From positions 1,084 through 65,083 of the forward strand of contig CAZOIS010000001.1 of the NCBI GenBank assembly GCA_964579865.1: a DNA stretch of 64,000 bases, read 5' to 3'. The stretch comes from an uncultured Lentisphaeraceae bacterium (GTDB taxonomy: Bacteria > Verrucomicrobiota > Kiritimatiellia > RFP12 > UBA1067). A program made the position numbers and the translations under genes. The stretch's first letter is position 1. Every line of letters starts with the position of its first letter. The notes beneath the pieces are model-generated. The model saw only the letters and a program-made list of their open reading frames with translations. It had not been told where the DNA came from and did not search any database. This document shows positions 4,240 through 41,979 of this stretch, piece after piece.

Positions 4240-4249
4240 CGGTTAGTCC

Positions 4250-4753: not shown

Positions 4754-4963
4754 CCTCAGGACTTCCTCTCATATGCGCGGGACTCAGGCCGCCCCCGAAG
4801 AGGCGTCCTGCGCTGGGTGTTATGTGCCGGGTTCTTCATATAAACAGTAAACGACAGTATCAGGAAAAAGTTCATGCCGCGAGGAATTATTTCAAAATAA
4901 TCACATGATGGTCCCGTATATGAGTGAATGTGCCGCCTGTTGCGGAGGGGCGCGTGTTCCGGC

Positions 4964-5949: not shown

Positions 5950-5965
5950 TGCAAGTAGTGTGCCA
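5950..5965 (-). promoter_or_regulatory. sigma54 -24/-12 promoter (TGGCAC-ACTAC-TTGCA) for the HU-zinc-ribbon gene and probably the downstream pseudopilin module
   Basis: The reverse complement of 5950..5965 matches the consensus TGGCAC-N5-TTGCA exactly. Lies about 40 nt upstream of ATG 5911. Confidence 0.65.
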
Positions 5966-6056: not shown

Positions 6057-7361
6057 ATGGCCATGAAATTCTGGTTTGGCAAAAAAGGTACGGAGCCGGA
6101 TGAGAGCGCGGGCGCGACCGGTGCCCTTCCCGTGGCGACGCCGAATCGTGCGGAAAGTGGCGCTCCGCCGTCTCCCGCAGAATCGGCGACGTCTGCCGTG
6201 CCGCAAGGTCCGGACGCTGTTTCCGTCGGCGGAAGCCCGTCTGCCGGAATCCCGCCGGCACCCCGTGCGGCGGTGGACGTGGGTAGCGCGGCGCCGCTGC
6301 CCTTGGCGGTGTCGCCGCAGACGGTGTCAGGGCCCGAGGCCGGAGTGAACAAGGGGAGCGCCTCTTCATCTCCTGCCGCGGAAACGGCCGACGTTCCGCG
6401 GACGGTACTGAAAGCGGTCGGAGGAATCGCCCCGGTCCGTTTGACGGCAGTGCACCCCGCAGGGAGTGGGCCGCAGACGGCGGGATCGGCCCCGGTCGCA
6501 GGTGCCGGACGCCCGGTTTTCGCGTTACGGCCGAAAAACGACTCGACGGCCGCGCCGGCCGCGGTGGCGGAAATAAAGCCTCCGACGGGGGCTCAGGCTG
6601 AAGGGGGCCCCGCTCCCGCCGGAAAAATGGCGGGCGGGCTTGGCGACGGGAACGAGCTGATCCGCCCGAAGACCGATCAGCGGGCGCTCTATTACCAGCT
6701 GATGAACGGTCTGTACGATGCGGTCCTGATCCTGGACGATCAGGGGCATGTCGTGGACTCCAGCAAGCGGGTGTCGGAACTCTTGGGGTATTCGCGCGAA
6801 GACACGTGGGACTTGGGCATTGATAAGATCATTACCGGGATGACGCGGCAGATGTTCGAGCATCTCAGGCGCAGTTTGTCAGAGAGCAACCATGTGCTGA
6901 TCGACGCGCGGTGCTCTCGCCAGGACGGCACCTCGTTCTCGGGCGAGGTTGGCGTGAGCACGCTCTCGCTGACCACCGGTTCAAATATCGTTTTCGCGAT
7001 CCGCAATGTGGAACGGCGCAAGACCGCGATGGAGGACCTCCGCAAGTGTCAGGCGGCGCTCGACGTCGCGTTGGTGCCGGTGTTTGTGTGTGATACCGAC
7101 GGGTTCTTCCAGATGGTCAACCAGACGCTGCTCGACGCGTTCGGAATACCGGATGCGGCCCAGGCGAAAAGCGTGCGGTTCGTGGATCTGTTGCCCGATG
7201 CGGCCCGCTTTTTCCTGAGGGCGGCCTGCGGCGAGAAGGTCCATGAGAAGATCAGCGTCGCGACGCCGGACGGGATGCCGCTCAAACTCGAAATCTCCTT
7301 GGCACCGGTGCAGAGCGGCTCGAACATCACGGGCGTCGCGGGGTCGATCCTGCAGATGTGA
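6057..7361 (+). CDS. PAS-PAS protein with about 200-aa Pro/Ala/Gly-rich disordered N-terminus, no output domain
   Basis: ATG 6057. C-terminal 230 aa contains two PAS-like modules (LYDAVLILDDQGHVVDSSKRVSELLGYSRED..., ALVPVFVCDTDGFFQMVNQTLLDAFG...). N-terminus is low complexity. Confidence 0.8.
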   Translation: MAMKFWFGKKGTEPDESAGATGALPVATPNRAESGAPPSPAESATSAVPQGPDAVSVGGSPSAGIPPAPRAAVDVGSAAPLPLAVSPQTVSGPEAGVNKGSASSSPAAETADVPRTVLKAVGGIAPVRLTAVHPAGSGPQTAGSAPVAGAGRPVFALRPKNDSTAAPAAVAEIKPPTGAQAEGGPAPAGKMAGGLGDGNELIRPKTDQRALYYQLMNGLYDAVLILDDQGHVVDSSKRVSELLGYSREDTWDLGIDKIITGMTRQMFEHLRRSLSESNHVLIDARCSRQDGTSFSGEVGVSTLSLTTGSNIVFAIRNVERRKTAMEDLRKCQAALDVALVPVFVCDTDGFFQMVNQTLLDAFGIPDAAQAKSVRFVDLLPDAARFFLRAACGEKVHEKISVATPDGMPLKLEISLAPVQSGSNITGVAGSILQM

Positions 7362-7452: not shown

Positions 7453-8928
7453 CTATTCATCGCGGTAAGGCTTGTTCTGTTCGAACATGGTGAGCCGCGT
7501 CGTGAGCGCGGCCGCGTGTGTCGTGTCGCCGTTCTGCGTGTAGATCGCGGCGGCCCGGCGGGTGGCGTCGAGCGCCCGGCGGAAAGAACCGTACTCCGCT
7601 TGGGCGGCGCCGAGCACCTCCAGGGCTGTCGCGTCTTTGTCGCGGAGCAGGTCGTTCGCTTTCTCGGCCAGTTTGACGGCCTCTTTGCCGTCCCGCAGTT
7701 CTGGGAACGGCGACGTCGCCAGGATCCACGCCACTTCGCACATCGCGCCGGTGTTCTTGGCGTCCTCGGCCAGGGCGGCCCGGGCAGTCTGCAAGAGTTC
7801 GCGCGATTTGGCCATACGCCCTTGGCGCAACGCCTCTTCGGCCTTTTTCTTGAAGTCCAGACTGATGCCGGCGAGCCGGAATTTGGTCTCGATGTCCACT
7901 TTGTCCACGGCCTTGATGTAGGCGTCTTCAGCGGTGATGATGCCTTTGGCCGCCAGGCGCGTGAGTTCGTCGCTGAAGGTCTGCATGCCCGCCGTTCGGC
8001 CGGTCTGCATCACCGACGGGATCATGTGGGTCTTCGCCTCGCGGATCAGGGCCGAGACCGGCGTGTTGACGACCAGCACTTCGAAGGCGGCGATCCGCCC
8101 GCCCTCGATCTTTTTGCAGAGGGTTTGGGCCACGACGCCTTTGAGCGTATCGGCCAGCATGGAGCGGATCTGGTTCTGCTGTCCGGCCGGGAATTTGTCG
8201 ATCATGCGTTCGACGGTCGACGCCGCGCTGTTGGTGTGCAGGGTCGCGAAGACCAAGTGACCCGTTTCGGCGGTCTCGATGGCGATCTCCATGGTCTCAA
8301 GGTCGCGGATTTCGCCGATGAGCACGATGTCCGGGTCTTCGCGCAGGGCGGCGCGCAGGGCGCGGGCAAAGCTCGTTGTGTCGCGGTGGACCTCGCGCTG
8401 GTTGATGATGCACTGGTGCGGCGTGTGGACGAACTCGATCGGGTCTTCGATCGTGATGATGTGCTCGTTGCGCTGTCGGTTGATGTAGTCGATCATGGCC
8501 GACAGGGTGGTGGACTTGCCGCTGCCGGTCGGGCCGGTGACGATGACGAGGCCTTTTGAAAGCATGCAGAACTCGCGCATGACGTCCGGCAGGTTGAGGT
8601 CCTCGAAGGTCGGGATCCGCTCGGGAATCACGCGCAGGGACGCGCTCCACCCGCACATGTCGCGGTACCCGTTGACGCGGAAACGCGCCGTGCCGGGAAT
8701 TTCGTACGCGCAGTCGGTGTCCCACTCGTGCTCGAGCTGCCCGATGTTCTCCTCCGGCATGATCTCTTTCACGAGGTCGAACACCTGCTGGCTGGAGAGC
8801 GCCGGCTCGCCGGCGATCGGCGAGAGGGTGCCGTGCACGCGGATGTATGGCGTGCGGCCTGCGCAGAGGTGCAGGTCGCTGCCTTCGCCGGAAACCAGCG
8901 GGACGAGAAAGCGGTCAATGGAAGCCAT
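7453..8928 (-). CDS. pilT: PilT-type twitching-motility retraction ATPase with about 140-aa C-terminal TPR-like extension
   Basis: Walker A GPTGSGKSTT, IITIEDPIEF, REDPDIVLIGEIRD, GHLVFATLHT, and the PilT-specific ALIREAKTHMI (AIRNLIRE-like) motif. The protein is 491 aa, against roughly 345 aa for typical PilT proteins as I recall them. The tail (aa about 350-491) has TPR character. Confidence 0.9.
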   Translation of the reverse strand: MASIDRFLVPLVSGEGSDLHLCAGRTPYIRVHGTLSPIAGEPALSSQQVFDLVKEIMPEENIGQLEHEWDTDCAYEIPGTARFRVNGYRDMCGWSASLRVIPERIPTFEDLNLPDVMREFCMLSKGLVIVTGPTGSGKSTTLSAMIDYINRQRNEHIITIEDPIEFVHTPHQCIINQREVHRDTTSFARALRAALREDPDIVLIGEIRDLETMEIAIETAETGHLVFATLHTNSAASTVERMIDKFPAGQQNQIRSMLADTLKGVVAQTLCKKIEGGRIAAFEVLVVNTPVSALIREAKTHMIPSVMQTGRTAGMQTFSDELTRLAAKGIITAEDAYIKAVDKVDIETKFRLAGISLDFKKKAEEALRQGRMAKSRELLQTARAALAEDAKNTGAMCEVAWILATSPFPELRDGKEAVKLAEKANDLLRDKDATALEVLGAAQAEYGSFRRALDATRRAAAIYTQNGDTTHAAALTTRLTMFEQNKPYRDE

Positions 8929-8962
8929 GGCTCTGTTCCTTTGGCGTTAGCGGATCATGCGG

Positions 8963-11900
8963 CTAGGGGTTTTTCACGCGGAAGAAGCCTTGCTTGGCCT
9001 GCGCGGGGATCTCGGCTCTCAGCAGGATCTGGCGGCGTCCGTCCAGGGTGGTGCCGAGGATCTCGCGGTAGACGACCGGCAAGGTCTGCCAGTCAGCCGC
9101 CGAACCGGTCAGCGAGGGGGTCCACTCCAAGGTGTAGTCGACCTGGAGATAGCCCTCCACCATGAGCGCGACGGATCCGCCTGTCGCGGCGGCGTCGCCC
9201 GCCGCGCTGCTGACGCTGCGGCTCGCCATGACCGCCGGCGTGATCGACAGCGCCGTGACGCGCGCCTGCGCCGAAGCCGGCGGGGTCGGCAAGGTCGACG
9301 CCAGCACGAAGAGGGCGCCCAGCTTCACGTCCCGTTCGGGCATCAAGAAGGTGACGATCGGGCCGCTGTTTGTCAGGACATAGACATCGCCGACCCAGCC
9401 GACGAAGACATAGCCGTCGCCCGGAGCTCGGGCTTCCACGGTCAGCGCCGTCCCCTGCGGGTAGATCATGCGGTCGCGCGCCTCTTCGATGACGTCGGGC
9501 AGTCCGGCGAAGATCGAGGGGATCACATAGACCGTGTTCGTCGCGTCTGAGAGCGTGAGCTTGGAGGTCGGTGTCCAGAACCCGTCGCGCATCCAGGCGC
9601 AGTCCTTGAAGACGCTCACGTCGATGTCTTTCGTGTAGTCGAACAGGAAGTCGTGCCGCGTCTTCCGGGCGGTCTCGCGGTCGGATAACCCGTTCTTCAC
9701 CACGACCGAAGCGGTGGACCAGCTCTCCTCTTTGCCGGAAATCCAGCATTCGGGCTTGTCGTCCACCTCGCCCTTGTAATCCAGCCAGAAGTCCAGACGG
9801 TCGGCCACCGCTTCGCTGCAGGAGGCCCACTGCCACATCAGGATGCCCGTGCCGAAATTGGTCACGCTGAGCTTGGCGTGCTGGCTGTTGTTGACGTAGC
9901 CGAACTGGCCGAAGCGGATCGCGCTGTTGCCGCCCGGCGCGTCGTTGACCCACGTCACGCCGCCGTCCTCGCCGTCGAACGTCGCGATCGAGGACTCGCC
10001 GTTGACGTCCGGGACGTCCGGGGCGCAGCCCGTCGCGTCGACCATCGCCTGCGGGATCCAGATCAGACGGTCGAGCGTGATGGTGTTGTCGCGGACGAAA
10101 TAGCTGCCGTCGCGCTGGAAGCGCAGCGAGATCGAGGTGGCGCCCGAGACGAAGTTCGTCATCGCCTTCCACGCGTTGTTTTTGCCGGAGACGGCGCCGA
10201 CGAGCGTGGTGCCGTTGACGATGACTTCGATCTCGTCATACGCGGTTTCCGCGTTGCCCTTCCACCAGAACAGCAGCACGCCGTCGCCAGTGAAGTTTGT
10301 CGTGGTCAGCTCCACGTATTGTCCCGCGCCGACCGAAGGGCCGCCGAATTTGACGACGGGGTCGTCGTAGCGGACGCCGCCGTTGGACTCGGCCACGATG
10401 CCGGTCGGGGAGAACGCCGCGATGTCGAGTTTCTGACCGGCGATGGTGAGCGCGCCCGCCAGTTTCTCGGCGGCGGTTTGCGGACGGTAGACGGCGGTCA
10501 CGGTGACGCTGTTGGAGGGCATCGTGAAGGTCGTGATGGCCGCATTGGTGTTGGCAAAGGCCGCGCCGTTGGTCGAGACCCAATAGTTGAAGGTCTGCCA
10601 CAGCGGCGCCGCGTCGGCGATGATGCGCACTTCCGCGCCGGCGGGGTAAGCGCCTTCGGGCTCGCCCGTGCTCTCGTGGACCGCGTTCGGCCAGGCGCCG
10701 CCGTCGCGGCCGTTGATCATGGTCACGGTGAGGGTTTGCTGCCGGTAGAGCGCCCGCACGGTGATGTCGCGCGACGGCATCACCAGACTGGTGGCGGCGG
10801 CGTCCGGCTCGGCGAGCGTCTCCATGTCGCCGTCCCACTGGTCGAACTCCATGCCCGCCGGTGCCGGGTCGGCGGCGATGGCCACGGTTGAGCCGACTGC
10901 GTAAGTGCCGCTGCCTGAACCGTTCTGCACCGTGAGCGCGTAGGCGAACTGCGTCCAGGTGACGCTGTCGACCCAGCCGCAGTCGGAACCGACCTGAGCG
11001 GCGGAATCGTCCTTCGCGTAGATCCACTGCACGGCGTGTTCGGCGACGGAGAGCAGGTTGGTCTCGAACAGGAGCCAGCCGGATTTGTTGCCGCTGATGC
11101 GCGCGGCCTCGGCCCCGTCGATCATGAGTATCAGGAAATCATGATCCCGCTCAGAGGAGGTGCGCCAGTGGAAGGAGAGCTTGCCGCTGCCGGAATAGAC
11201 GGTGCCCAGCGTGACGGACGCGCTGTTGGAGACCGTGCCGTCGCCGCCGAGGCGGACCGCGAGGTTGCTGACCGCGCCTGCGGGCGGGGCGGCGTCAAGC
11301 AACACCGCATCGAACCCGTCCGGCGCGAAGAGGGTCTTCCCGGGCGTGCCCAGCTCGGCCGCCAGCGCGTCGGGGATCCAGAGGACCTTGCCGATCGTGG
11401 CGGTGTCGCTGCCCGCGCGGTCGCTGACGTCTTTCACGTACGACCATTGAAGCGTGTGCGGTCCGTCGCCGGCGACGAAGTTGGTCAGCACGCCGGACTG
11501 GGTGCCGCTGGCCGAGAAAACGTTCGTGCCGTCGACCGAGAAGCGGAAGAAGTCGTAGTCTTTCTCGCTGTTGACCTGCCACGGGAAGATCACGGTTCCG
11601 GCGTTGGTGTAGACCGTCGTGAAGAAGGCCGTCTGGTTGTCGCCGATCGGGCCGAGGGTCACGTGGTCGAGCCCGATGTTGGCGGCGGTGAGGTTGCCGA
11701 AGGTGACGGGCGGAGGAACGCCGAGCACCTGCTGGATCAGCTCATCCACGGGCACGGCGGTGAAGGTCGCGGTGACCGTGATGTTGCTGGGGCCCATCAG
11801 CACGGTGGTGGCGCTGGCCAGCGGGTCCGCGACGGTCGAGATGTCGCCGGTCCATCCGTCGAAGGTGTACCACAGGGCCGGGAGGTTCGCCGCGATGGCC

Positions 11901-14900
11901 ACGGTTGTTCCGCTGACGTACGACCCGCTGCCGGAGCCGTCCTCGACGGTCAGCGTGTAGTGCGGCACCGGCGGCGCGTTGGTGGTGTAGGTCGCGGTCA
12001 AGGCAAGGTCGTAAGCCGGCATCTGGAAGGTCGGGTGGAAATTCGTGATCCCCGCGCCGAGAACCGCGAGCGCGTTGGTGCCGGTCCAGCGGTCGAAGTA
12101 ATAGCCCGCCGCCGGCGGATCCGCGAGGATCGTCACGGCCGAGTTGGCGGCGAAGTAGCCCTCCTGACCGCCGCTGCCGCTGAGGATCGTGCCCTGGGTC
12201 AGGGTCAGCTTGTGGGTGGAGGTCCAGACCACGTTGCGCAGCCAGCCGCAATCCTCGAACATGCTGACGTCGTTATCCTTCTGATAGCGGAAGCTGCAGA
12301 TGTTCATCGTCGTGTCTTTTCCAGCGAGCAGCTCGGGCGTGACGGCGAACGACGAACTGTACCATGAGCCGTCGAGCTTGCCGCTGATCCAGTTGGTCTT
12401 GGCGCCGTCGATGTAGAAGCCGAGCGTGTCGTAGGCGCCCTCGCTCCGGGCCGTCCATTCCCACGTGAGGACGCCGGTGCCGAAGTTGGTGAAGGCGACC
12501 TGCGCGCAGAGGTTGTTGGTGACGTAGCCGAAGCGGCCGAGGCGGATGGCGTCGCCGCCGCCGGGCGCGTCGTGCACCCAGGCCACGCCGCCGTCCTCGC
12601 CCTCGAAATCGTTCTCCTCTTTGTCGCGGTCGCGTCCCAGGAAGAGCGGGTCATATTCGGCGTTGATGTTCGGGATGCAGGCGCCGGCGCCGAGTTCGTC
12701 GACCATGTCTTGCGGAATCCAGGTGACGCGGTCGAGCAGCAGGATGTTCTGGTGCACGTAGTAGGTGTCGTCGCGCGTGTAGCGCCAGGTGAGGTTCGAG
12801 ACGTTGGAGAGCCGGGCGTATCCGCACCACCATATTTTCGTGCTGTCGACGGTGTTGGTGTCCTTCATCGAGAAGACGGCCGAGTACGGGAAGCCGTTCA
12901 CTTCCAACTGGACGCCGTCGACGTCCTCCTCGGTGTCGCCGTGCCACCAGAACATCAGAATGCCGCTGCCGGTGAAGTTCGTGGTCGAGAGATACACGTT
13001 CTGGCCGGGGCCGACCGAGGGCCCGCCCATCTGGACGACCGGATCGTTGTAGCGGATGCCGCCCGTGGCTACGGCGACGACGCCGGTGGGCGAGAAATCG
13101 GTCACGGCGAGCGGCTGCCCGCGGATGGTGAAGGCGCTCGCCAGCTTTTCCGCCGCGGTCTGCGTCCGGTAGGTGGCGGTGACGGTGACGTCGTTGCCCG
13201 GCATCGTGAACATCGTGACGTCGGCGTCCGCGTCCGCGAAAACAGCGCCGTTGGTGGAGACCCAGCCGTCAAAGGTCTGCCCGAACGGGGCCGGGTCGGC
13301 GACGATGCGCACGAGCGCGCCGGGCGGATAGTCGCCCTCGGGCTCGCCGGTGCTCTCGTGGACGGGGTTGGGCCAGGCGCCCGCGTCGCGACCGTTGACG
13401 ACCGTGACGTTCATGGTCAGGACCTTGTAGAGGGCGCGGACCGTGATGTCCTTGCCGGGCATGACCAAGGTGGTGGCGGCGGCGAGCAGATTCGAAACCG
13501 TGTCGGTGTCGCCGCTCCAGCTGTCGAATTCCATGCCCGCGGCGGGCGCATCGGCCGTGATGCCCACGGTCTGGCCGGCCGGATACGTGCCGCTGCCGGA
13601 GCCGTTCTCCACGACCAGCGTGTAGGTGAAGAGCGACCACGCCGCGTTGTCGATCCACACGGCGTCGGCGCCGTTGAAGCCCGAGGCGTTCTTGGCATAG
13701 GACCAGCGGACAACGTGGGCGCCCGTGGTCATCAGGTTGGTGGCGAAGGAGACCCAGCCGGTCGCTTTGCCGCTCAGGCGCGCCGCTTCGACGCCGTCGA
13801 TCGTGCAGACCGCGACGTCCGAGAGCTGGTTCGAGGTGCACCAGTTGAAGGTGAACAGGCCCGAGCCGTTGAGCACGACCTCGACGCTGTTGGTGGTGCC
13901 GTCGGCGAAATAGGGGATGCCGTTGCCGTCCAGCCCGCCCAGTTTGACGGCCGCGCCGTCCACCGCGCCTGCGGGCGCGGCGGTATCGAGGAAGCAGGCC
14001 TCAAAGCCGTAGGGGAAGGGCAGGGGATCGCCTGGGCGGCCGTCGGGGAAGTTGATCGGCTGGCCGGGGACGCCGAGTTCGGCGGCGAGCGGCTCGGGAA
14101 TCCACGTGACCGCGCCGACCCAGCCGGCGTCTTCCAGATCGTATCCGGCGCTGTCCTTGCTGTATTCCCAGCGGATCGTGTGCGCGCCGGCGCCGGCGAC
14201 GTACTGCGTGACGACGCAGGTCGGGACGTTGCCGGAAATGGCGTTCGTCTCGACGCCGTCGATGATGAGCGCCAAGCGGTCGCAGCCCGCCTCGCTGCTG
14301 ACGCGCCACGGGAAGAGCAGCGTGCCCGCGTTGGTGTAGACGCAGGAGAGGAAGGCGGTCTGACCGTCACCGATCCCGCCGAGCCTGACCTCGGGGACGC
14401 TGGGGTCGACGTCGGGGAAGTCGATGTTGTCAAACGTGACGGGCAGGGGAATTCCGAGGATCCGGCTCAGGTACTCGTCCAGCGACAGCGCCTGATAGGT
14501 GGCCGTGACGGTGATGTTGTGGTCGGGCATGACGAGCGTCGTGTTGGTGGCGGAGGTGTTCGCCACGGTGGCGGTGTCGCCGATCCAGCCGTTGAAGACG
14601 ATCCACGCGTTCGTGGGGTTCGCGCCGATGGCGACCACCGTGCCGTTCGAATAGCTGCCGCTGCCGCTGCCGTTGACCACGGTCAGGTCGTTGATCGACT
14701 TCGCGCGCTCGTAGGCGCCCATGTCGACGATGGACCCCTGAATGCGCGCGCCGCCCGCGGCGTCGCGGGGCCCGTACGCATACGCGTTGTTGCCGGCATT
14801 GATGCAGGGCGAGGTGTCCGACAGCAGGAAGGTGCCGGCCTTGAAAAGCGGATCGGTGATGAGGTTGTTGCCGCCGTCGCGGGTCTCGAGGTAGTCGTTG

Positions 14901-15670
14901 AGGCCGGGGGCGGGGGAGGTGCACGACGAGATGAAGTACGATTTGTCGATGCTATGGATGTCGGACGGATAGTTCTCGTCATTCTGCGCGCCGTTGAACA
15001 TCACGATCGAGTTGCGAACGTGGCAGCTGAAGACGCCGGCGCCGCTGGTGGTGTTGACGAAATTGCTGACGACCGTGCAGTTGTTGAGGGTGGCCCAGTG
15101 GGCGCCGCCGCCGCGGTAGGCGCCGCACTCGGTGATGATGCAGTTGTTGACCTGCGGTGTCCGGTTGCCGTCGGGCGCATAGACGCCGCCGCCGTTTTTC
15201 ACCGGATTGGCCATGTCGCTGTCGCCGACGGAGGCCGCCGCGTTCGCATACCCGTATCTGAGCGTGAAGCCGTCAAGAATGCCGTCGCTCATGTAGACGC
15301 AGCGGACGCAGCCGGCGCCGAAGCGCTGGGGCGGATTCGAGAAGTCCGGTGTGCCTTCGATGACGGTTGTTGCCGCGCCGTCGGTGCTGCGCACCAGGAT
15401 GGCCTTGGTGATCACGACGCGGGAATACCCAGAGGCGGGCAAACTGGTGTGGGTTCCTGTCGCGTAGGTGCCGGGGGCGACCAGGACGGTGTCGCCGGCC
15501 GCGGCGGCGTTGACGCCGCGCTGGATGGTCAAGAACGGATCGGTGTCGGACCCCGTGGCCGTGTCGCTGCCGGAGGGCGCGACGTAGTAAGTTGCGGCTT
15601 GCAGTGCGGAGGCCATGAGGGCAAGCGCAACAGGGGCAACGCACCGTACGCGTTTGAGAAATGTTTTCAT
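8963..15670 (-). CDS. giant secreted protein (2,235 aa): N-terminal right-handed beta-helix, 8 InlB-B-type repeats alternating with about 130-aa beta-sandwich modules, C-terminal GFFRV domain
   Basis: AAGGAG 6 nt upstream of ATG 15670. Signal peptide MKTFLKRVRCVAPVALALMASALQA. DUF1565-like cap YYVAPSGSDTATGSDTDPFLTIQRGVNAAAAGDTVLVAPGTY. Repeats follow the pattern NGSGSG.Y..G..V.I.A.P..G..F..W.GD. One frame is uninterrupted over 6.7 kb. Confidence 0.9.
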   Translation of the reverse strand: MKTFLKRVRCVAPVALALMASALQAATYYVAPSGSDTATGSDTDPFLTIQRGVNAAAAGDTVLVAPGTYATGTHTSLPASGYSRVVITKAILVRSTDGAATTVIEGTPDFSNPPQRFGAGCVRCVYMSDGILDGFTLRYGYANAAASVGDSDMANPVKNGGGVYAPDGNRTPQVNNCIITECGAYRGGGAHWATLNNCTVVSNFVNTTSGAGVFSCHVRNSIVMFNGAQNDENYPSDIHSIDKSYFISSCTSPAPGLNDYLETRDGGNNLITDPLFKAGTFLLSDTSPCINAGNNAYAYGPRDAAGGARIQGSIVDMGAYERAKSINDLTVVNGSGSGSYSNGTVVAIGANPTNAWIVFNGWIGDTATVANTSATNTTLVMPDHNITVTATYQALSLDEYLSRILGIPLPVTFDNIDFPDVDPSVPEVRLGGIGDGQTAFLSCVYTNAGTLLFPWRVSSEAGCDRLALIIDGVETNAISGNVPTCVVTQYVAGAGAHTIRWEYSKDSAGYDLEDAGWVGAVTWIPEPLAAELGVPGQPINFPDGRPGDPLPFPYGFEACFLDTAAPAGAVDGAAVKLGGLDGNGIPYFADGTTNSVEVVLNGSGLFTFNWCTSNQLSDVAVCTIDGVEAARLSGKATGWVSFATNLMTTGAHVVRWSYAKNASGFNGADAVWIDNAAWSLFTYTLVVENGSGSGTYPAGQTVGITADAPAAGMEFDSWSGDTDTVSNLLAAATTLVMPGKDITVRALYKVLTMNVTVVNGRDAGAWPNPVHESTGEPEGDYPPGALVRIVADPAPFGQTFDGWVSTNGAVFADADADVTMFTMPGNDVTVTATYRTQTAAEKLASAFTIRGQPLAVTDFSPTGVVAVATGGIRYNDPVVQMGGPSVGPGQNVYLSTTNFTGSGILMFWWHGDTEEDVDGVQLEVNGFPYSAVFSMKDTNTVDSTKIWWCGYARLSNVSNLTWRYTRDDTYYVHQNILLLDRVTWIPQDMVDELGAGACIPNINAEYDPLFLGRDRDKEENDFEGEDGGVAWVHDAPGGGDAIRLGRFGYVTNNLCAQVAFTNFGTGVLTWEWTARSEGAYDTLGFYIDGAKTNWISGKLDGSWYSSSFAVTPELLAGKDTTMNICSFRYQKDNDVSMFEDCGWLRNVVWTSTHKLTLTQGTILSGSGGQEGYFAANSAVTILADPPAAGYYFDRWTGTNALAVLGAGITNFHPTFQMPAYDLALTATYTTNAPPVPHYTLTVEDGSGSGSYVSGTTVAIAANLPALWYTFDGWTGDISTVADPLASATTVLMGPSNITVTATFTAVPVDELIQQVLGVPPPVTFGNLTAANIGLDHVTLGPIGDNQTAFFTTVYTNAGTVIFPWQVNSEKDYDFFRFSVDGTNVFSASGTQSGVLTNFVAGDGPHTLQWSYVKDVSDRAGSDTATIGKVLWIPDALAAELGTPGKTLFAPDGFDAVLLDAAPPAGAVSNLAVRLGGDGTVSNSASVTLGTVYSGSGKLSFHWRTSSERDHDFLILMIDGAEAARISGNKSGWLLFETNLLSVAEHAVQWIYAKDDSAAQVGSDCGWVDSVTWTQFAYALTVQNGSGSGTYAVGSTVAIAADPAPAGMEFDQWDGDMETLAEPDAAATSLVMPSRDITVRALYRQQTLTVTMINGRDGGAWPNAVHESTGEPEGAYPAGAEVRIIADAAPLWQTFNYWVSTNGAAFANTNAAITTFTMPSNSVTVTAVYRPQTAAEKLAGALTIAGQKLDIAAFSPTGIVAESNGGVRYDDPVVKFGGPSVGAGQYVELTTTNFTGDGVLLFWWKGNAETAYDEIEVIVNGTTLVGAVSGKNNAWKAMTNFVSGATSISLRFQRDGSYFVRDNTITLDRLIWIPQAMVDATGCAPDVPDVNGESSIATFDGEDGGVTWVNDAPGGNSAIRFGQFGYVNNSQHAKLSVTNFGTGILMWQWASCSEAVADRLDFWLDYKGEVDDKPECWISGKEESWSTASVVVKNGLSDRETARKTRHDFLFDYTKDIDVSVFKDCAWMRDGFWTPTSKLTLSDATNTVYVIPSIFAGLPDVIEEARDRMIYPQGTALTVEARAPGDGYVFVGWVGDVYVLTNSGPIVTFLMPERDVKLGALFVLASTLPTPPASAQARVTALSITPAVMASRSVSSAAGDAAATGGSVALMVEGYLQVDYTLEWTPSLTGSAADWQTLPVVYREILGTTLDGRRQILLRAEIPAQAKQGFFRVKNP
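9326..14686 (-). repeat. tandem duplication of an about 880-910-aa, eight-domain super-module inside the giant gene
   Basis: aa 329-1237 align colinearly with aa 1238-2115. Examples: LTVVNGSGSGSYSNGTVVAIGANP / LTVEDGSGSGSYVSGTTVAIAANL; NGRDAGAWPNPVHESTGEPEGDYPPGA / NGRDGGAWPNAVHESTGEPEGAYPAGA; TAAEKLASAFTIRGQPL / TAAEKLAGALTIAGQKL; EGEDGGVAWVHDAPGG / DGEDGGVTWVNDAPGG. Confidence 0.85.
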
Positions 15671-15752
15671 GATTACTCCTTGTCAGACATCATGCGGGCG
15701 CGCAATGACGCGCCTGCATGACGGCCGATCCCATGACGGTGGAAAGCGTTCA

Positions 15753-17693
15753 CTAATTCTGCAAAAGGGGCTCGATCGCCGTCGGTTTCGCGGCCTCGCG
15801 CTCGCTGACGGCCGGTGCGGGGGCCGGGGCGGCGGCGACGGGCGCTGGCGTGGCGGCGGGAGCCGGGGCCGGGGCCGGTTCCGGCTGAGGCGCCGCCGTC
15901 GCGGCACTTTCTTCCACGGGTTGCTGGACGGTTTTCTTTGCGGGTTTCGGGTCTTTGAGACTGAGGACTTCCTCCTTGGTGCGGTCGCCCGGCTCTTTCA
16001 TTTTGCCGTTGAGGAGATCGCGTCCCAGGATGGCGTTTTTGGGCATGCCGGTGTTTTCGGGCAGGGTGGCCGGATCGGCGATCCCGACGGTGACGAAGAT
16101 GATGATCTCCTTCTGCACTTTCTCGCGGCTCTTCCAGCCGAAAATCTTGGAACCGACCCACGGCAGGCTGCGCAGGTAGGGGATGCCCGAATCGATGCTT
16201 TCTTCGGTTGTCTTGGTCAGGCCGCCGATGACGGCGGTGGAGCCGCTCTGCATGTTGAAGACCGTCTGTATGCGCTGCATGTAGATGATCGGGAAACGCG
16301 GGGTGGGGGTGTTCTCCGACACGCCGCTGAACTCGTAGTACTCTTTCAGGTTGCTGATGGCCGGCTCGGCCAGCAAGGTGATCGTGCCGGTGGGGCTGAC
16401 GCGCGGCGTGACCTTGAGGCTGATGCCGTAGCTGAAGAACGCCTCGCCCGCGAAGAGCCCTTTGCCGACGCCGTCTTTGTCCCCTTTTTCGCCCGGGATG
16501 ACTTCCAGGCGGGACGAGATGTCGATCTGGTCCATGTTCGTTCCCGTGCGGGTGGTGGTGATCGTGAGATTCGGCTCTTTGGTGGTCATGTCCACCATCG
16601 CCTCTTGCTCATTCGCGACGATGATCTTCGGGTTCGAGAAAATGGAGACGCCGTCGATCTGCTCGAAGGCGTTCATGGTCAGCGAGAAGGCGTCCATGGA
16701 GAGGGAGCCGGTAAAGGTGGTGTCGCGGGTATGGGTCTTGGAGGTGGCATGCGTGGCGGAGGCCGAGCCGCTCACGGCCGAGTCGATCGTGCGCGTCAGC
16801 GAGTCTTTGATCGAGCCGCTGGTCGAACGCACGTCGTCCACATAGGAATCATCGGTCAGAGAGGAAGAGGTCCCTGTCTGTTTGTCGCTGGTGCTGCTGT
16901 CGGCGGAGGTGCTGCTGCCGCTGGTCTTCGACTTCCCGCTGGTTTTCGAATACCCCAGCGTAGCGCCGTCGAAGTTGACGCCCCAACCGTTGCCGCCGAG
17001 GCTGTCCCATTTCATGCCGAGCTTTTTGCTGGCGCTGGCGGAGAGCTCCGCGAAGCGCACTTCGATGTAGACTTGCGGGGTCTGCTTGTCGACGGAGCTG
17101 ATGATCTTCTCGCACTCGGCGAGTTGCTGGTCGGTGGCGGTGACGATCACCACGTTGGCGGCCTTGAAAGCCGAAGCGAGGCCGCCGGTGCCGAGGGTCG
17201 TTTTGAAGAGCGCCGCGACGTCTTCGGCCTTGGCGTGGTTCAGCTCGAACGTGCGGGTGACCTTGGGGATTTCGAGCGTTTTGGCGGTGACCACGAAGAT
17301 GCCGGAGCCGGCCGGCTGTTCGAGGAGCTGGAGTCCCTGCGGGTCAAGGATGGAGGCAAGGCCTTTGCGCCAGGGCACGTTGTCGAGCCGGATGCTGACG
17401 GCGGTCTGCAGGTTGGTGCCGCTCGAGATGATGTTGGCGCCCGTGGCGTCGCGGAACGCTTTGATCACATCGGAGAGCGGGGTTTCGTCGAACACCATGG
17501 AGACGACCTGCTCGGTGCTGTTGGCGGTGTCCACCACGCGAAAGGTCGGCTCGGCGGGTTTCGGTGCGGGCTGCGTCGGAGCGGCGGCTGCGGTGCCGGT
17601 TGCGGCTGCGGGCGCTTGGGCCAGCGACGGCAACGGAACCGCCAGAAGGGCGGCTGCCATGACGGATAGACAGACAAGGACGAGACGTTTCAT
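15753..17693 (-). CDS. pilQ: secretin (PilQ/GspD family), 646 aa
   Basis: Track ORF trimmed to ATG 17693 (MKRLVLVCLSVMAAALLAVPLPSLAQA signal peptide). N-domains, then the secretin core (VSIFSNPKIIVANEQEAMV...STAVIGGL...IPYLRSLPWVGSKIFGWKS...EIIIFVT). The discarded upstream 375 codons overlap pilP/pilO out of frame. Confidence 0.9.
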   Translation of the reverse strand: MKRLVLVCLSVMAAALLAVPLPSLAQAPAAATGTAAAAPTQPAPKPAEPTFRVVDTANSTEQVVSMVFDETPLSDVIKAFRDATGANIISSGTNLQTAVSIRLDNVPWRKGLASILDPQGLQLLEQPAGSGIFVVTAKTLEIPKVTRTFELNHAKAEDVAALFKTTLGTGGLASAFKAANVVIVTATDQQLAECEKIISSVDKQTPQVYIEVRFAELSASASKKLGMKWDSLGGNGWGVNFDGATLGYSKTSGKSKTSGSSTSADSSTSDKQTGTSSSLTDDSYVDDVRSTSGSIKDSLTRTIDSAVSGSASATHATSKTHTRDTTFTGSLSMDAFSLTMNAFEQIDGVSIFSNPKIIVANEQEAMVDMTTKEPNLTITTTRTGTNMDQIDISSRLEVIPGEKGDKDGVGKGLFAGEAFFSYGISLKVTPRVSPTGTITLLAEPAISNLKEYYEFSGVSENTPTPRFPIIYMQRIQTVFNMQSGSTAVIGGLTKTTEESIDSGIPYLRSLPWVGSKIFGWKSREKVQKEIIIFVTVGIADPATLPENTGMPKNAILGRDLLNGKMKEPGDRTKEEVLSLKDPKPAKKTVQQPVEESAATAAPQPEPAPAPAPAATPAPVAAAPAPAPAVSEREAAKPTAIEPLLQN

Positions 17694-17713
17694 CTGATGC
17701 TCCTGTTTCGTGT

Positions 17714-18223
17714 TTATTGTTTGAGAGACGGAAGGTTGGTGTCGGTGATGCGCGCGGCTTTGACCGGCTTCAGCTCCAGCTTGAGGTGCGCGAGCGACTC
17801 GATGCGCCAGACGAACTGGATGTCGAGATTGGTGAAGCAGAGGGTGTCGCCGGGGTTGTACGTCCGGCGGTTGATCATCACCTGTGCGCGCGTCTCGCCG
17901 GTGTCGGGGCGCCGGGACTGGGTGAAGCCGCTGACGGTGAGCGCCTTGCGGGCCACGGCCCAATCGGCTTCCGTGATCGCTTTGACGGGCGGCGGCTGGG
18001 CCTTGGCCGGCTGTTGCGGGCGGGGCACCGCCTGTTGGGTGAGCGCCGCTTCGGACTCCTTGGGCTCGGGCTTGGGCGGCTCGTAGCCGATGGGCCAGAA
18101 CGGGTCGCGGGCGGCTGCGGCCGGGAGTACGGCGAACAGGCCGAAAAGGACGGCGGGGAGCAAGCCGCGCGGACGCCGTGCGAAGACGTCCCGATCTGGG
18201 TTTTTGGGCGTGTGTGCGTTCAT
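17714..18223 (-). CDS. pilP: PilP-like pilus assembly protein
   Basis: 169 aa, N-terminal TM/signal, RDPFWP motif typical of PilP, Pro-rich linker, small C-terminal beta domain. Sits directly upstream of the secretin gene (20-nt gap). Confidence 0.6.
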   Translation of the reverse strand: MNAHTPKNPDRDVFARRPRGLLPAVLFGLFAVLPAAAARDPFWPIGYEPPKPEPKESEAALTQQAVPRPQQPAKAQPPPVKAITEADWAVARKALTVSGFTQSRRPDTGETRAQVMINRRTYNPGDTLCFTNLDIQFVWRIESLAHLKLELKPVKAARITDTNLPSLKQ

Positions 18224-18250
18224 GTGGATGACGCTCCGGCTGGATAGCGG

Positions 18251-18889
18251 TTAAGGGGCGGAAGGGGGAGGGACGGCGGGAAGAGCCCGTTTCTCGCCTT
18301 TGACGGGCCACTCGAAGGTGATGATCGCCTTGTGGCTTTCGGGGGTCTGCGGCTGGCCGAGGACCGTGATGCTGGCGAGCGTCGCCAGCGGCAGGGCCTC
18401 TTCGGCGCAGGAGACGAAAGCCGCGATCTGGGTATAGGACCCCTGGCCGGTGAATTCGACCAGCTGGCGTCCGTAGAGCTGCTCGGGGGGCGGCTTGGGC
18501 ACCTGAAGCGGGATGAACCGGTCTTCCTTGACGCCGTTGATCGTGAAGCCGGTCTGTTTCGCGATGGGGTCGAGCAGGGATTTGCCCCGCATGGCAAACG
18601 AGCCGAGCAGCGGCTCGATCACGCCGGCGGCGATCAGGGCATCGCGTTCGGCGCCGACGGCGGCGGCCTTGGCCTGCTGTTTTTCGGTCCCGGCAATGTC
18701 CTGCTTCATGTTGGCGACGGTCGTTTTCAGCCCGTCGTTCTCGGCCCGCACAGCCAGCAGCCGTTTGCGCGCGGGCAAGATGGCCAGGAAGATCAGCGCG
18801 AGCACGATCAGCAGGCACCCGCCGGTGATGAGGATGGCGTGCCGCCAGTGGGGGTTCAGATTTTTCAGAAAAGGCACCTCGGTGTTCAT
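18251..18889 (-). CDS. pilO: PilO-like bitopic pilus assembly protein
   Basis: ATG 18889 overlaps the pilN stop (ATGA). Single TM (HAILITGGCLLIVLALIFLAIL), a coiled segment, then a ferredoxin-like C-terminal region. Assignment rests on position between pilN-like and pilP-like genes. Confidence 0.6.
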   Translation of the reverse strand: MNTEVPFLKNLNPHWRHAILITGGCLLIVLALIFLAILPARKRLLAVRAENDGLKTTVANMKQDIAGTEKQQAKAAAVGAERDALIAAGVIEPLLGSFAMRGKSLLDPIAKQTGFTINGVKEDRFIPLQVPKPPPEQLYGRQLVEFTGQGSYTQIAAFVSCAEEALPLATLASITVLGQPQTPESHKAIITFEWPVKGEKRALPAVPPPSAP

Positions 18890-19545
18890 TCGAACCTCCT
18901 CGGGAAGCAATCGCAGGTGATTTCGAACAGCAGCGTGTCGCGGCTTGCGGTCGCGCGGGCCGTGTCTTGACGGAAGGCCCCCTTCGGGATTTCGGCGGAA
19001 CGGATGAGGTTGGTGAAAGGCGGCGTGCCGATCGACTTGAGCAGCGCGTTGACGTCGACGCTGGGGCTGTCGCCGCCGGCGCGCCCCAACAGCCGCAAGG
19101 TCACGGTTTCGAAGAGGTTGGTCGGCCCCAGCGGCGGCTTCAGCGGATCGAGCGGCGGCGGGAGCGGCGGCGGCGGCGGGACGCGCAGTTCGGTGAGTTG
19201 CAGGCTGGCGGGAACGTGCTCGGCCAGGCGCGCGAACGTCTCGCCGAAGCGGAGCCGGGAATTGCGGTAGAACGTGAGCTGCCGCAGCGTGGCGGCGTTT
19301 TCCTGTTCCTGCGCGCGCAGGCGCAGCACCTCGGCGTGGGACGGCTTCAACTGTTGGAGGTCCGCTTCCAGCGCGGACTTCTGGAGGGTCGCGGCGTGCA
19401 CGCGGAAGGCGATCAGGATCCACCAGACCGCCGTGCCGAGGACGGCCAGGCCGCCGCACAGCGGCAACATCACCCGCAACCGGATCGGGTTGGGGCTCAC
19501 GCGTTCCTCGTCGGTCAAAAGGTCAAGGTGCAGGGATGCGCTCAT
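18886..19545 (-). CDS. pilN: PilN-like bitopic pilus assembly protein
   Basis: ATG 19545 overlaps the pilM stop (ATGA). Short cytoplasmic N-terminus, TM (VMLPLCGGLAVLGTAVWWILIAF), coiled coil, poly-Pro stretch. Assignment is positional. Confidence 0.55.
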   Translation of the reverse strand: MSASLHLDLLTDEERVSPNPIRLRVMLPLCGGLAVLGTAVWWILIAFRVHAATLQKSALEADLQQLKPSHAEVLRLRAQEQENAATLRQLTFYRNSRLRFGETFARLAEHVPASLQLTELRVPPPPPLPPPLDPLKPPLGPTNLFETVTLRLLGRAGGDSPSVDVNALLKSIGTPPFTNLIRSAEIPKGAFRQDTARATASRDTLLFEITCDCFPRRFE

Positions 19546-20558
19546 AAGTCCTCCAGCACCGCGCGCGCGGCGCCGATCGCGGTCATCAGGAGCGGCGCCG
19601 CGGCGTTCAGGTCTTTCGGCAGGCAGGAAGCCGGCGCCGTCACCCGGATGCCGTCCAGCGGCAGGCAGGGCGTCAACGGCTGACTCATCATGTGGGCGAA
19701 GATCGCGGACCAGTAGCGGCTGCCCGCCGTCAGGCCGCAGACAAAGAAATGCTTCACCGGACAGTTCCTGCGCCGCAGCAGGTAATCGGCCGAGATTTCG
19801 ACTTGGCGGAAAAGGGGCCGCAGGACCGGCTCGATGATGGGCGTCGGATCGATGAGCGTGTCCTCCAAGACGGCGTCTGCGAGACCGAGCTCCATGTGCA
19901 TCTGGGAGCTGATGGCGTTGCGCAGGTGGTCCGCGCCGATGGGGTGCTCGCGGTACAGCACAAGGCGGAAATCCTGAAAGGCGGCCAGGGCGGTGTGATT
20001 GGCGAAAACAAAAAGCGTGACGGCGTTGCCGCCGGCCTCCACGAAGGCGGGGTGCGGGAGGAACCCGCTCATGGCCGCGGCGACGGAAACCTGGAGCGAG
20101 CAGGCCGTCGGAGGCCGGCCTTCCGGCAACAGGCGGGCGGCCCATGCGGCCTGGAATTCCGGCAGCCCCGCCGTGAACGGCGGCTGGTCAGGGACGACCA
20201 CGCGGGCCGCCTGCCGATACGCGAACTGCTTTTTCTCTTGGCCTTCCTCGGCGGCCCCGGCCGACTGCCGGAAGAAGGCGAGCTTGGACGTCACCGCAAT
20301 GGCGGCGTGCGGCGCCTGGAACGGGCGGGGCAGGGTCCAAACCGTCGTTCCCGGCGTCGGGGCAAAATCAGGGCTGTCGGGAAACGTGCCGGGCAGGTGC
20401 AGGAAGCCGGCAGCCAGCAGTTCGATGACGCCATCCCGTTTGCGCAGACGCACGGCCGGAACCCCGTCCGCCAGCCCGCATCCCAGCTCCAGCCCCACGA
20501 TGTCCGTGTGGGGCTTGTGCGGCGGCGCGAGTTTGGTCGGCAGTGAAACTGATTTCAT
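19542..20558 (-). CDS. pilM: PilM-like actin-fold pilus assembly ATPase-like protein
   Basis: Track ORF 19542..21725 trimmed to in-frame ATG 20558 (MKSVSLP...). DIVGLELGCG resembles the PilM GLDIG phosphate-1 motif, and FFVCGLTAGSRYW a late actin-fold motif. First gene of the M-N-O-P-Q series. Confidence 0.6.
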   Translation of the reverse strand: MKSVSLPTKLAPPHKPHTDIVGLELGCGLADGVPAVRLRKRDGVIELLAAGFLHLPGTFPDSPDFAPTPGTTVWTLPRPFQAPHAAIAVTSKLAFFRQSAGAAEEGQEKKQFAYRQAARVVVPDQPPFTAGLPEFQAAWAARLLPEGRPPTACSLQVSVAAAMSGFLPHPAFVEAGGNAVTLFVFANHTALAAFQDFRLVLYREHPIGADHLRNAISSQMHMELGLADAVLEDTLIDPTPIIEPVLRPLFRQVEISADYLLRRRNCPVKHFFVCGLTAGSRYWSAIFAHMMSQPLTPCLPLDGIRVTAPASCLPKDLNAAAPLLMTAIGAARAVLEDL

Positions 20559-20570
20559 ATGCACACAAAC

Positions 20571-20586
20571 AGCATAAATGATGCCA
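20571..20586 (-). promoter_or_regulatory. candidate sigma54 promoter (TGGCAT-CATTT-ATGCT) abutting the pilM start
   Basis: Correct spacing and orientation, but the -12 GC is only 13 nt from ATG 20558. This implies a virtually leaderless mRNA or a different start codon. Confidence 0.35.
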
Positions 20587-20840: not shown

Positions 20841-21974
20841 ATGAAGACCAACGAAAAATCCCAGACGATCAAGATCGATATCCGTTCCCTGGGATATGGT
20901 CGGTTGCCGGGGACGGACGCGCAGCGCGGCACGGCCCCCGTGGATTATTTCGACAAGCTGGATTACCGGTTTTTGTTCGAGCACGCCTATGACGCGATTC
21001 TGCTGGCGGACGGCGCGGGGAAAGTGCTGGCGGCCAATGCGCGTGCGACGCGGTTCTTCGGATACGAGGAGGTCGGCCTGACGGGGCTGCCTCTCCATGC
21101 GCTGGTGGCCGGCGTGACCGACGCGCTGCTCGCCGAGATCAGGACGGTGATCGCCGAGGGCCGCTACATGCGCATTCAGGCGTTTGCGGTGCACAAGGAC
21201 GACGTCTTCACTGCGGTCGAGATCGTGGCGATGGGCAACGGCACCCATTCGCCGGATCCGGTCTGTTATCTGGTCCGGGACATCCAGTCCCGCTGGCGGG
21301 CGGAACAGAAGCTGCTTTCGGCGTATCACGCCATGGACAACACCGACGCCGGCATCGGCATCGCCGACATGCGGGGCGTCATCACCTATGCCAACCGCAT
21401 GATGACCGAACTGCTTGCCGGAGGGGATGAGGCCGCGGTCGTGGGCCAGCATCTGGACGCCTGGTTCGACCGCAAAGCCGTGATCAATCCGCTGCTGGCA
21501 AACATCCGGGCGGGCGAAGGCTGGACGGGCGAGCAACGGACGATGGCCCGCGAGAAGACCGGCTGGCTGATGATTTCCGCGGTTCCCGACATCAATGAGG
21601 AGAGCGAGCTGTGCGGCATGGTGCTCTCGGTCCGCGATACGGCCGAGCGGCGGCGGGCGGAGATCGCCGAGCAGCAGGCCGAGCGCAACCGGGTGATGGC
21701 GGAGAGCCTTTCCCAGGCCTGCCATTCGCTGGGGCAGCCGGCCACCGTGCTGCTGACCGGCATCGAGATCCTCAAGCTGGAGGGGGACAAGGACGAGGCG
21801 CTGCGGCGCGAGATGGTCGATTTGTGTTACGGGGCGGTCATCCAGCTGCGCGACCTGCTGCAGCAGATGAACGCCAAACGGCTGCAGGGCGGCAGGGGCG
21901 AGGAGAAGGCCGGGGAAGCCGCGCCGGCCGTGTCGCCGCCGCCCGGGGCAGCAGACGAGGAGCGTGTGCGATGA
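20841..21974 (+). CDS. PAS-PAS-DHp signalling protein lacking a kinase ATPase (HATPase_c) domain
   Basis: ATG 20841 (MKTNEKSQ...). Two PAS modules (FEHAYDAILLADGAGKVLAANARATRFFGYEE..., DNTDAGIGIADMRGVITYANRMMTELL...). A coiled HisKA-like segment follows (MAESLSQACHSLGQPATVLLTGIEIL...LRDLLQQM), then the protein ends. Its stop overlaps the next ATG (ATGA at 21971..21974). Confidence 0.8.
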   Translation: MKTNEKSQTIKIDIRSLGYGRLPGTDAQRGTAPVDYFDKLDYRFLFEHAYDAILLADGAGKVLAANARATRFFGYEEVGLTGLPLHALVAGVTDALLAEIRTVIAEGRYMRIQAFAVHKDDVFTAVEIVAMGNGTHSPDPVCYLVRDIQSRWRAEQKLLSAYHAMDNTDAGIGIADMRGVITYANRMMTELLAGGDEAAVVGQHLDAWFDRKAVINPLLANIRAGEGWTGEQRTMAREKTGWLMISAVPDINEESELCGMVLSVRDTAERRRAEIAEQQAERNRVMAESLSQACHSLGQPATVLLTGIEILKLEGDKDEALRREMVDLCYGAVIQLRDLLQQMNAKRLQGGRGEEKAGEAAPAVSPPPGAADEERVR

Positions 21975-22435: not shown

Positions 22436-22437
22436 TT

Positions 22438-41972: not shown

Positions 41973-41979
41973 GTCCGGT

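Follow-up and report, generated by a model that had tools for sequence, protein, structure and literature searches.

A clade-restricted, optional giant gene for an adhesin-like protein between pilQ and pilT of a type IVa pilus cluster in uncultured Kiritimatiellia

Introduction

What is a 6.7-kb gene doing in a type IVa pilus operon, with the gene for the secretin (pilQ) on one side and that for the retraction ATPase (pilT) on the other? Such operons are among the best-studied bacterial gene clusters, and none of the literature that we searched describes a gene at that place, be it in Kiritimatiellota or in other groups. The gene in question, hereafter the giant gene, is located on the minus strand at 8963..15670 of a 64,000-nucleotide (nt) stretch of contig CAZOIS010000001.1 from an uncultured Lentisphaeraceae bacterium (Kiritimatiellia in GTDB). 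Its open reading frame (ORF) and domain matches indicate a modular, adhesin-like protein of 2,235 amino acids (aa). The whole stretch is referred to as the window. A first-pass annotation of the same DNA regarded the locus as its best candidate for an undescribed system. This was overstated, as the pilus genes are an ordinary type IVa set and 23 close loci lack the giant gene. What is new is a clade-restricted, optional adhesin-like family at a fixed slot; what is known is the standard type IVa cluster around it. As to function, we give an even chance to the reading that, in a clade of uncultured Kiritimatiellia, the gene encodes an accessory, Sec-exported, fibre-like adhesin for glycans or particles that is genetically tied to the type IVa pilus operon.

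The giant gene occupies a conserved position

The giant gene is bounded on the same strand by pilQ (15753..17693, 646 aa) and pilT (7453..8928, 491 aa), at distances of 82 nt (15671..15752) and 34 nt (8929..8962), respectively. The gene order pilM-pilN-pilO-pilP-pilQ-giant gene-pilT, its strand and its coordinates were correct in the first-pass annotation, as were both gaps and the ATGA overlaps of pilM with pilN and of pilN with pilO.

Protein searches returned full-length orthologues at 51-98% identity, together with forms of ~1,330-1,440 aa and 3,124 aa. Intact orthologues reached down to 42% identity (range 42-99%), and intact giant ORFs of 1,330-3,124 aa were present in more than 25 lineages. 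Seven loci were looked up on the basis of protein homology, and in all seven the secretin gene, the giant gene and a gene for a PilT-family ATPase were found on one strand; where upstream sequence permitted, four small genes preceded them, with a divergent PAS gene and minor-pilin operon further upstream. A scan of 185,579 species genomes for giant-protein motifs detected orthologues in 12 genomes, labelled variously as Kiritimatiellia, Lentisphaeraceae, Verrucomicrobia and, in two cases, "Akkermansia sp.". In all 12, pilQ and pilT flanked the giant gene wherever the contig reached. DAOPZC010000076.1, from "Kiritimatiellia bacterium AMR_MDS_1298", was 97-100% identical to the window. As a test that could refute the proposed association, it had been asked beforehand whether homologues are linked to pilQ and pilT; all orthologues found sit between these two genes. 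The 21 matches that shared the beta-helix alone (L020-L040) had no pil neighbors.

The tree of the giant beta-helix mirrored that of PilQ (distance correlation 0.89). Judged from these trees, the giant gene has co-diverged with pilQ and pilT, and its association with them is genuine and inherited vertically. In more distant PilQ clades (38-46% identity), neither pilT nor a giant gene was found after pilQ, and the genes at that place were apparently ordinary housekeeping genes, judged by reading their N-terminal sequences. The slot is specific to this clade.

Closely related loci often lack the giant gene

Metagenomes were scanned with PilQ as the anchor, irrespective of the giant gene, and 80 loci were obtained. 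In the clade with pilT after pilQ, the giant gene was present in 10 loci and absent from 23, some of the loci being redundant. In the 23 gene-less loci, pilQ was followed directly by pilT across gaps of 10-503 nt, and all other genes were retained, including the minor-pilin operon and a 491-aa tailed PilT. Because these relatives keep an intact pilMNOPQ-pilT set, the pilus machine does not need the giant gene. Gene content thus presents the giant gene as an accessory, optional add-on to the pilus.

A neighbor-joining tree (not maximum likelihood) was built from concatenated PilM/N/O/Q/T (1,572 columns, 100 bootstraps). Present and absent states were interleaved on it: L046 (absent) grouped with L014 (present) and L065 (absent) with L063 (present), both at 100% bootstrap support; L002 (present) was sister to a six-locus gene-less clade (97%), and L004/L007 (present) were sister to L089/L058/L066 (absent; 86%). 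Since the giant-gene tree is congruent, this interleaving implies at least four separate changes of state, which would most simply be losses. A tblastn search with 30 family members against the gene-less pilQ-pilT gaps revealed no remnants better than E 0.03, so that loss is read from the trees only.

The pilQ-pilT spacers of three gene-less loci, L052 (5295-5762), L055 and L076, are 290-470 nt long and contain dense short tandem and inverted repeats, e.g. GGTAGGAA repeats and paired GGGCGGGACGCCCATGCCACGAGGG copies, in which no similarity to the giant gene was detected.

Architecture of the giant protein

The translation begins with a Sec-type signal peptide (15596..15670, minus strand; residues 1-25, MKTFLKRVRCVAPVALALMASALQA, with A as the next residue), in which no lipobox was seen. 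It is followed by a right-handed beta-helix head (14696..15595, minus strand; residues 26-325) consisting of a DUF1565/Pel9A-like cap and a choice-of-anchor Q region. Pfam and NCBIfam searches matched the head to DUF1565 (E 1e-5) and a Pel9A-like family (E 5e-5), and residues 280-322 to choice-of-anchor Q (NF041518, E 1e-8, 35.2 bits against a cut-off of 25). When the whole protein was searched against PDB sequences, the cap alone gave matches, to xylosidase 3vst and rhamnogalacturonan lyase 5olq.

Eight stretches of the remaining protein matched the InlB B-repeat family Flg_new_2 (PF18998, E 2e-70, 233 bits against a cut-off of 23.6). The signal peptide, the DUF1565-type cap and the eight InlB-B-type repeats of the first-pass annotation are thus supported by the translation and the domain matches. 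The strict alternation of repeats and beta-sandwich modules that it described was not found. Internal repeats mapped by sliding-window self-comparison revealed two supermodules of ~900 aa, each with the order F-S-S-F-F-S-S-F, where F is an InlB-B repeat and S a jelly-roll module. Supermodule I covers residues 329-1237 (11960..14686, minus strand), and supermodule II, residues 1240-2125 (9296..11953, minus strand), is its tandem duplicate at about 45-68% identity.

The eight S modules (125-160 aa) are mutually homologous; they had no match in Pfam or NCBIfam, and a profile of all eight found no PDB sequence. An AlphaFold2 model of residues 329-760 (F-S-S-F) was confident, with a predicted local distance difference test (pLDDT) score of 87.3. 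In Foldseek searches, its S modules matched jelly-roll domains at E 2e-7 to 5e-5: the carbohydrate-binding modules (CBMs) tandem CBM22 (4xup), CBM35 of Xyn30D (4qaw) and CBM51 (7js4), as well as carbohydrate-binding domains of BcsB (9b8i, 5ej1), VesC (6bqm) and the CUB/MAM region of enteropeptidase. This likeness is at the level of the fold, and the S modules belong by sequence to no CBM family of CAZy or Pfam.

The protein closes with an immunoglobulin (Ig)-like beta-sandwich of ~75-100 aa (8966..9262, minus strand; residues ~2137-2235) ending in QGFFRVKNP. Its AlphaFold2 model (pLDDT 89) gave only weak, generic Ig-like matches in Foldseek (E about 0.01). When every ORF of the window and of 1.4 Mb of related loci was searched with a hidden Markov model (HMM) of this domain, only giant proteins matched. 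In a phmmer search of 1.84 billion representatives, 13 matches were obtained: eight were checked (five fetched, three known members) and belonged to the giant family, one was a low-complexity artefact, and the other four were short matches whose sequences were not fetched. The restriction of the domain to the giant family in both searches rules out a general sorting tag. The domain is a candidate for an element that docks on the pilus or the secretin. Pfam and NCBIfam searches of the giant protein revealed no PEP-CTERM, LPXTG or type IX secretion C-terminal domain.

Taken by their families, the domain types are those typical of extracellular adhesins. Mean pairwise identity per domain was 0.41-0.67 across the whole protein and ~0.33 in the linker; such roughly even conservation suggests that the fibre is under selection over its whole length. 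The number of supermodules in relatives is one, two or three. Orthologue lengths range from 1,330-1,440 aa (one supermodule) over intermediates of ~1,800 aa to 3,124 aa (about three); these variants were noted among P0002, L121, L098 and L122, with L121 as a one-supermodule form. Variation of this kind is typical of adhesins with a tuned stalk length.

Intergenic gaps and transcription

Both gaps carry an AAGGAG/AAGGA ribosome-binding site ahead of ATG. Scans bore out the statement of the first-pass annotation that a sigma-54 (-24/-12) box and a hairpin with a T-run, the form of a canonical terminator, are absent from both gaps; a sigma-70 box is absent as well. A strong GC-rich stem-loop without a T-run had been overlooked at 15683..15728 (minus strand), within the 82-nt gap (RNAfold -33.9 kcal/mol for the gap, z -3.2 against shuffles). 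It is a candidate attenuator, terminator or RNA-stabilizing element.

Hairpins just as strong but of different sequence were found in most of the orthologous pilQ-to-giant gaps, among them those of L003, L004, L007, L009, L011, L014 and L063, and in the low-GC loci L006, L016 and L098 the hairpin was followed by a T-run, as in an intrinsic terminator. Because many gene-less loci have a comparable hairpin after pilQ, the element is assigned to the pilQ 3' end and not to the giant gene. Nearly all measured gaps between the giant gene and pilT are short and lack structure; they span 7-103 nt in 14 of 15 loci (mostly 7-54 nt in the relatives), and in L016 the gap is ~224 nt by alignment coordinates. 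Some relatives have the giant gene as close to pilQ as to pilT; in L123, the gaps are 9 nt on the pilQ side and 7 nt on the pilT side.

From this spacing, the giant gene and pilT would form the tightest unit, and their coupling to pilMNOPQ probably occurs through partial read-through that differs among lineages. The giant gene had been described as an internal cistron of a ~13-kb unit. To judge by its gaps, it is plainly one in L123, and in the window this status is uncertain owing to the hairpin after pilQ.

A -24/-12-like element with two mismatches, TGGCATCATTTATGCT (20571..20586, minus strand), ends 13 nt before the start codon of pilM. It lies too close to that codon, and with 22 such matches in the window against 26 expected, it is statistically unremarkable.

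Identity of the pilus genes

Third-position GC values of 0.87-0.91 set the seven minus-strand pil and giant genes apart from spurious ORFs. The pil gene names of the first-pass annotation rest on family models for PilT and PilQ, on a profile only for PilM, and on position and topology for PilN, PilO and PilP.

PilT matched the PilT/PilU model TIGR01420 at E 4e-136 (453.6 bits against a cut-off of 319.1). PilQ matched Secretin (PF00263, E 1e-26) and Secretin_N (PF03958, E 4e-9), both over the cut-off, and the PilQ-specific TIGR02515 at E 3e-42, under its cut-off. It contains a Ser/Thr/Lys-rich low-complexity insert (residues ~245-320) and a Pro/Ala-rich tail (~590-646), both of which differ in length between orthologues. 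The product of pilM (19542..20558, minus strand; 338 aa) is a highly divergent actin-like pilus assembly protein. It had no Pfam match, scored E 0.003 against TIGR01175 and was recognizable only through a profile of 16 orthologues, whose top four PDB matches were PilM structures (3jc8, E 6e-5; 5eox, E 0.005); pilM lies upstream of pilQ in all related loci.

The pilN-like gene (18886..19545, minus strand) encodes 219 aa with one N-terminal membrane segment; Pfam and NCBIfam searches gave no family match, and it was assigned by position, size, topology and conserved synteny. The pilO-like gene (18251..18889, minus strand; 212 aa, one membrane segment) is also conserved in synteny, and its product had weak matches to GspM (NF040576, E 0.004) and T2SSM (E 0.02). 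The pilP-like gene (17714..18223, minus strand) was assigned by position; its 169-aa product has a signal-like N-terminus, no family match and no visible lipobox cysteine, and orthologues occur in related loci.

A helical tail of ~145 aa in PilT (7456..7896, minus strand) had been called a tetratricopeptide repeat (TPR) tail. The similarity is weak (TPR_12, E 9e-4, under the Pfam cut-off), and the tail is unrelated to the giant gene. A link between the tail and the giant gene or its length was rejected, as tailed PilT occurs in gene-less loci. L121 combines a one-supermodule giant gene with a tailed PilT, and L006, L016, L017, L122 and L123 combine a giant gene with an untailed PilT.

A divergent operon with N_methyl motifs (21971..25762, plus strand) encodes minor pilins and was kept in loci with and without the giant gene. 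Its products are a GspI/ComGE-like pseudopilin (21971..22435; GspI, E 4e-4), a 727-aa pilin-like protein with the prepilin-type N-terminus GYTLMET (22438..24621), and a GspK/PilX-like protein (24665..25762; GspK, E 3e-4). The 727-aa protein is unusually large, has a large domain without a family match and is present in all related loci; it is a candidate tip component. On the minus strand follow pilA for the major pilin (27289..27645; 118 aa, translation starting MKMNRKGFTLVEIM, with a GFTLxE motif), a gene for an NtrC-type sigma-54 response regulator (27938..29326; Sigma54_activat, E 3e-71), pilC (29419..30528; PilC, E 1e-112) and pilB (30529..32361; TIGR02538, E 5e-190). By its gene content, the machine around the giant gene is an ordinary, complete, retractile type IVa pilus and not a type II secretion system.

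Regulatory features were also observed in this region. A sigma-54 box with one mismatch, TGGCACGCGGCCTGCT (27712..27727, minus strand), precedes pilA, which is itself next to the response-regulator gene; pilA is probably controlled by sigma-54 and PilR. The N-terminus of PilB is an MshEN domain of the type that binds cyclic di-GMP, and a second MshEN-domain protein is encoded by the divergent neighbor of pilB (32278..33246, plus strand). PAS-domain genes lie on both sides of the pil operon (20841..21974 and 6057..7361, both plus strand) and were kept in nearly all related loci, with or without the giant gene. Their conservation suggests dedicated sensory control of the pilus.

Neighboring genes in the window

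A perfect sigma-54 -24/-12 box, TGGCACACTACTTGCA (5950..5965, minus strand), was found 39 nt upstream of 4964..5911 (minus strand), whose product is an HU-like DNA-binding protein with fused zinc ribbons. Kept downstream of pilT in related loci, this gene stands at the head of a second pseudopilin-like cluster that comprises 4250..4768, 3703..4242 (N_methyl motif) and 1954..3702.

The region 36831..64000 is rich in glycan-degradation and surface genes. These encode BNR sialidase-like, M6 peptidase, DUF6259 and GH99/71-like (with Laminin_G) proteins, two beta-helix proteins (one GH141-like), an alpha-amylase, a GH2-like protein and a Porphyromonas-type peptidylarginine deiminase. With this gene content, the host is a polysaccharide degrader.

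Discussion

In the reading to which we gave an even chance, the giant gene would be co-transcribed with pilT, by read-through of the hairpin after pilQ or by initiation near it, and its product would cross the inner membrane via Sec. At the cell surface, the beta-helix and the eight jelly-rolls would bind polysaccharide or particle surfaces, which fits the wealth of glycoside hydrolases in this organism. The cell would then be brought to the bound substrate as the pilus extends and PilT drives its retraction. The least supported step is the passage of the outer membrane, for which the adjacent PilQ/pilus machine would be the most economical route and the C-terminal domain a candidate dock. The proposal that export depends on PilQ is plausible but tentative, and we lean against it. 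If it were true, type IVa systems would join those of type IVb among the pili that mediate secretion, and it would suggest how uncultured Kiritimatiellia of digesters, sludge and groundwater grip polysaccharide particles. If export were independent of PilQ, the family would be a new group of modular surface proteins with an unusual, stable address.

In a stronger form of the proposal, the type IVa pilus machine would have the additional, dedicated task of exporting and displaying a giant fibre that binds glycans. With its C-terminal Ig-like domain docked either in the vestibule of PilQ or at a minor-pilin tip of GspK/GspI-like proteins, the fibre would be driven out through the secretin and displayed on the pilus or next to it. 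We consider this rather unlikely. If true, it would make the giant gene the first one for a cargo or adhesin within a type IVa pilMNOPQ-pilT operon, and it would give polysaccharide degraders of the Planctomycetes-Verrucomicrobia-Chlamydiae (PVC) group a mode of substrate capture. Each of the three roles offered by the first-pass annotation, a pilus-presented adhesin, a secretin-dependent exoprotein and a surface fibre, stays a candidate. The presence and absence of the gene among close relatives is a natural experiment for comparing niche and surface proteome.

Several points weigh against a pilus-linked adhesin. The glycan-binding role is a fold-level similarity only, with low template-modeling scores for a multi-domain query and no binding residues identified, and the beta-helix could be catalytic instead of adhesive. 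No recognized anchor or sorting signal was found in the giant protein. Co-transcription with pilMNOPQ is not assured, because a strong hairpin, terminator-like in low-GC relatives, follows pilQ in most loci, and the repeated loss shows that the link between the giant gene and the pilus is not obligatory. All carriers are uncultured and known from metagenome-assembled genomes alone.

Some of these points lend themselves to another explanation, in which the giant protein, an ordinary adhesin-like protein of the surface or the secretome, would be exported by a different system (a separate type II system or a putative PVC-group pathway, for example), and its gene would have only the transcription context in common with the pilus genes. 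Its fixed position would then reflect the vertical inheritance of one old insertion, with no mechanistic link, and congruent trees are what plain vertical inheritance predicts. At least four losses from an intact operon, the hairpin or terminator-like element between pilQ and the giant gene, and the many beta-helix relatives with other repeats that are not beside pil genes are all in keeping with it. However, the giant gene was relocated in none of the more than 25 lineages examined, its family-specific C-terminal domain was found nowhere else, and the gaps to pilT, and in L123 also to pilQ, are only a few nucleotides. We regard this explanation as possible and tend to doubt it.

It is improbable, in our estimate, that the giant protein is an enzyme cargo, i.e. 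a catalytic polysaccharide lyase or hydrolase beta-helix targeted by CBMs and released into the medium by a pilus that acts like a type II secretion system. Such a cargo would suit a cap that resembles Pel9A, DUF1565, rhamnogalacturonan lyase and xylosidase, modules with a CBM-like fold and the genome of a polysaccharide degrader, and type IV pilus-dependent secretion has a precedent (PMC10120004). However, the enzyme families match only the ~50-residue N-terminal cap, no catalytic-domain family scored over threshold, and eight spacer repeats in one to three supermodules are typical of stalk-like adhesins.

The location of the giant gene directly after the secretin gene would also suit a structural part of the pilus machine, e.g. 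a scaffold in the periplasm or at the secretin, comparable to TsaP, FimV or PilW; with 23 related operons intact and judged to work without the gene, domain types of extracellular adhesins, and no peptidoglycan-binding or lipoprotein features, we hold this to be highly improbable. The chance that the gene is an artefact (a decaying insertion, an assembly chimera or a spurious over-long ORF, many of which arise in high-GC DNA such as this window of ~64% GC) is next to nothing, as its third-position GC of 0.91 is like that of the true window genes, the identical protein was assembled independently from a Logan run, near-identical copies (about 97-99%) exist in a GenBank genome (L012) and a JGI (Joint Genome Institute) metagenome contig (L041), and orthologues diverge down to 42% identity.

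Among known systems, the type II secretion substrates resemble the giant protein in being Sec-exported and glycan-directed, with a gene adjoining the secretin gene. Pullulanase PulA, encoded with the pul genes, is such a substrate beside its secretion operon. The machine is different, since the one described here has PilT, PilA, PilM and PilNOP-like proteins, i.e. it is a retractile type IVa pilus. PilY1/PilC is likewise a large non-pilin adhesin that acts together with type IVa pili. The C-terminal domain of PilY1 is a beta-propeller of the Neisseria_PilC family, its gene accompanies those for the minor pilins, and the protein is usually needed for piliation. Membership of this family is ruled out for the giant protein, which had no Neisseria_PilC match in Pfam or NCBIfam and has an Ig-like C-terminus; its gene is located outside the minor-pilin operon (21971..25762) and is dispensable. 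Modular beta-helix proteins of Verrucomicrobiota and Lentisphaerota share the head (29-39% identity over residues ~15-330) and a repeat-rich body. Their choice-of-anchor Q/DUF1565 heads are combined with PKD, Ig or other repeats, but they (L020-L040) are not encoded beside pil genes and lack both the S modules and the family-specific C-terminal domain.

TcpF of Vibrio cholerae and CofJ of enterotoxigenic E. coli are encoded in type IVb pilus operons and exported by the pilus via the minor-pilin tip (PMC10120004, PMC6048534, PMC9565799). As non-pilin, Sec-dependent proteins encoded inside a pilus operon, they are a precedent for cargo. They are small soluble proteins of type IVb systems whose export signals were shown experimentally, whereas the giant protein, known here from genes alone, is giant and modular, accompanies a type IVa pilus with PilT and has no homology to them.

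Tapirins, the beta-helix cellulose adhesins of Caldicellulosiruptor, are encoded beside the type IV pilus locus (bioRxiv 10.1101/359786). A PDB sequence search with the whole giant protein detected no tapirin homology at the sequence level. Tapirins are about 600 aa long and belong to a monoderm without a secretin, whereas the giant proteins have 1,330-3,124 aa with InlB-B and jelly-roll repeats, and their gene lies between pilQ and pilT of a diderm host. Nevertheless, in both cases a polysaccharide degrader encodes a beta-helix protein at a type IV pilus locus, attachment to the substrate is presumed, and the functional tie to the pilus is suspected from gene position only. Tapirins are thus the closest functional analogy to the giant protein.

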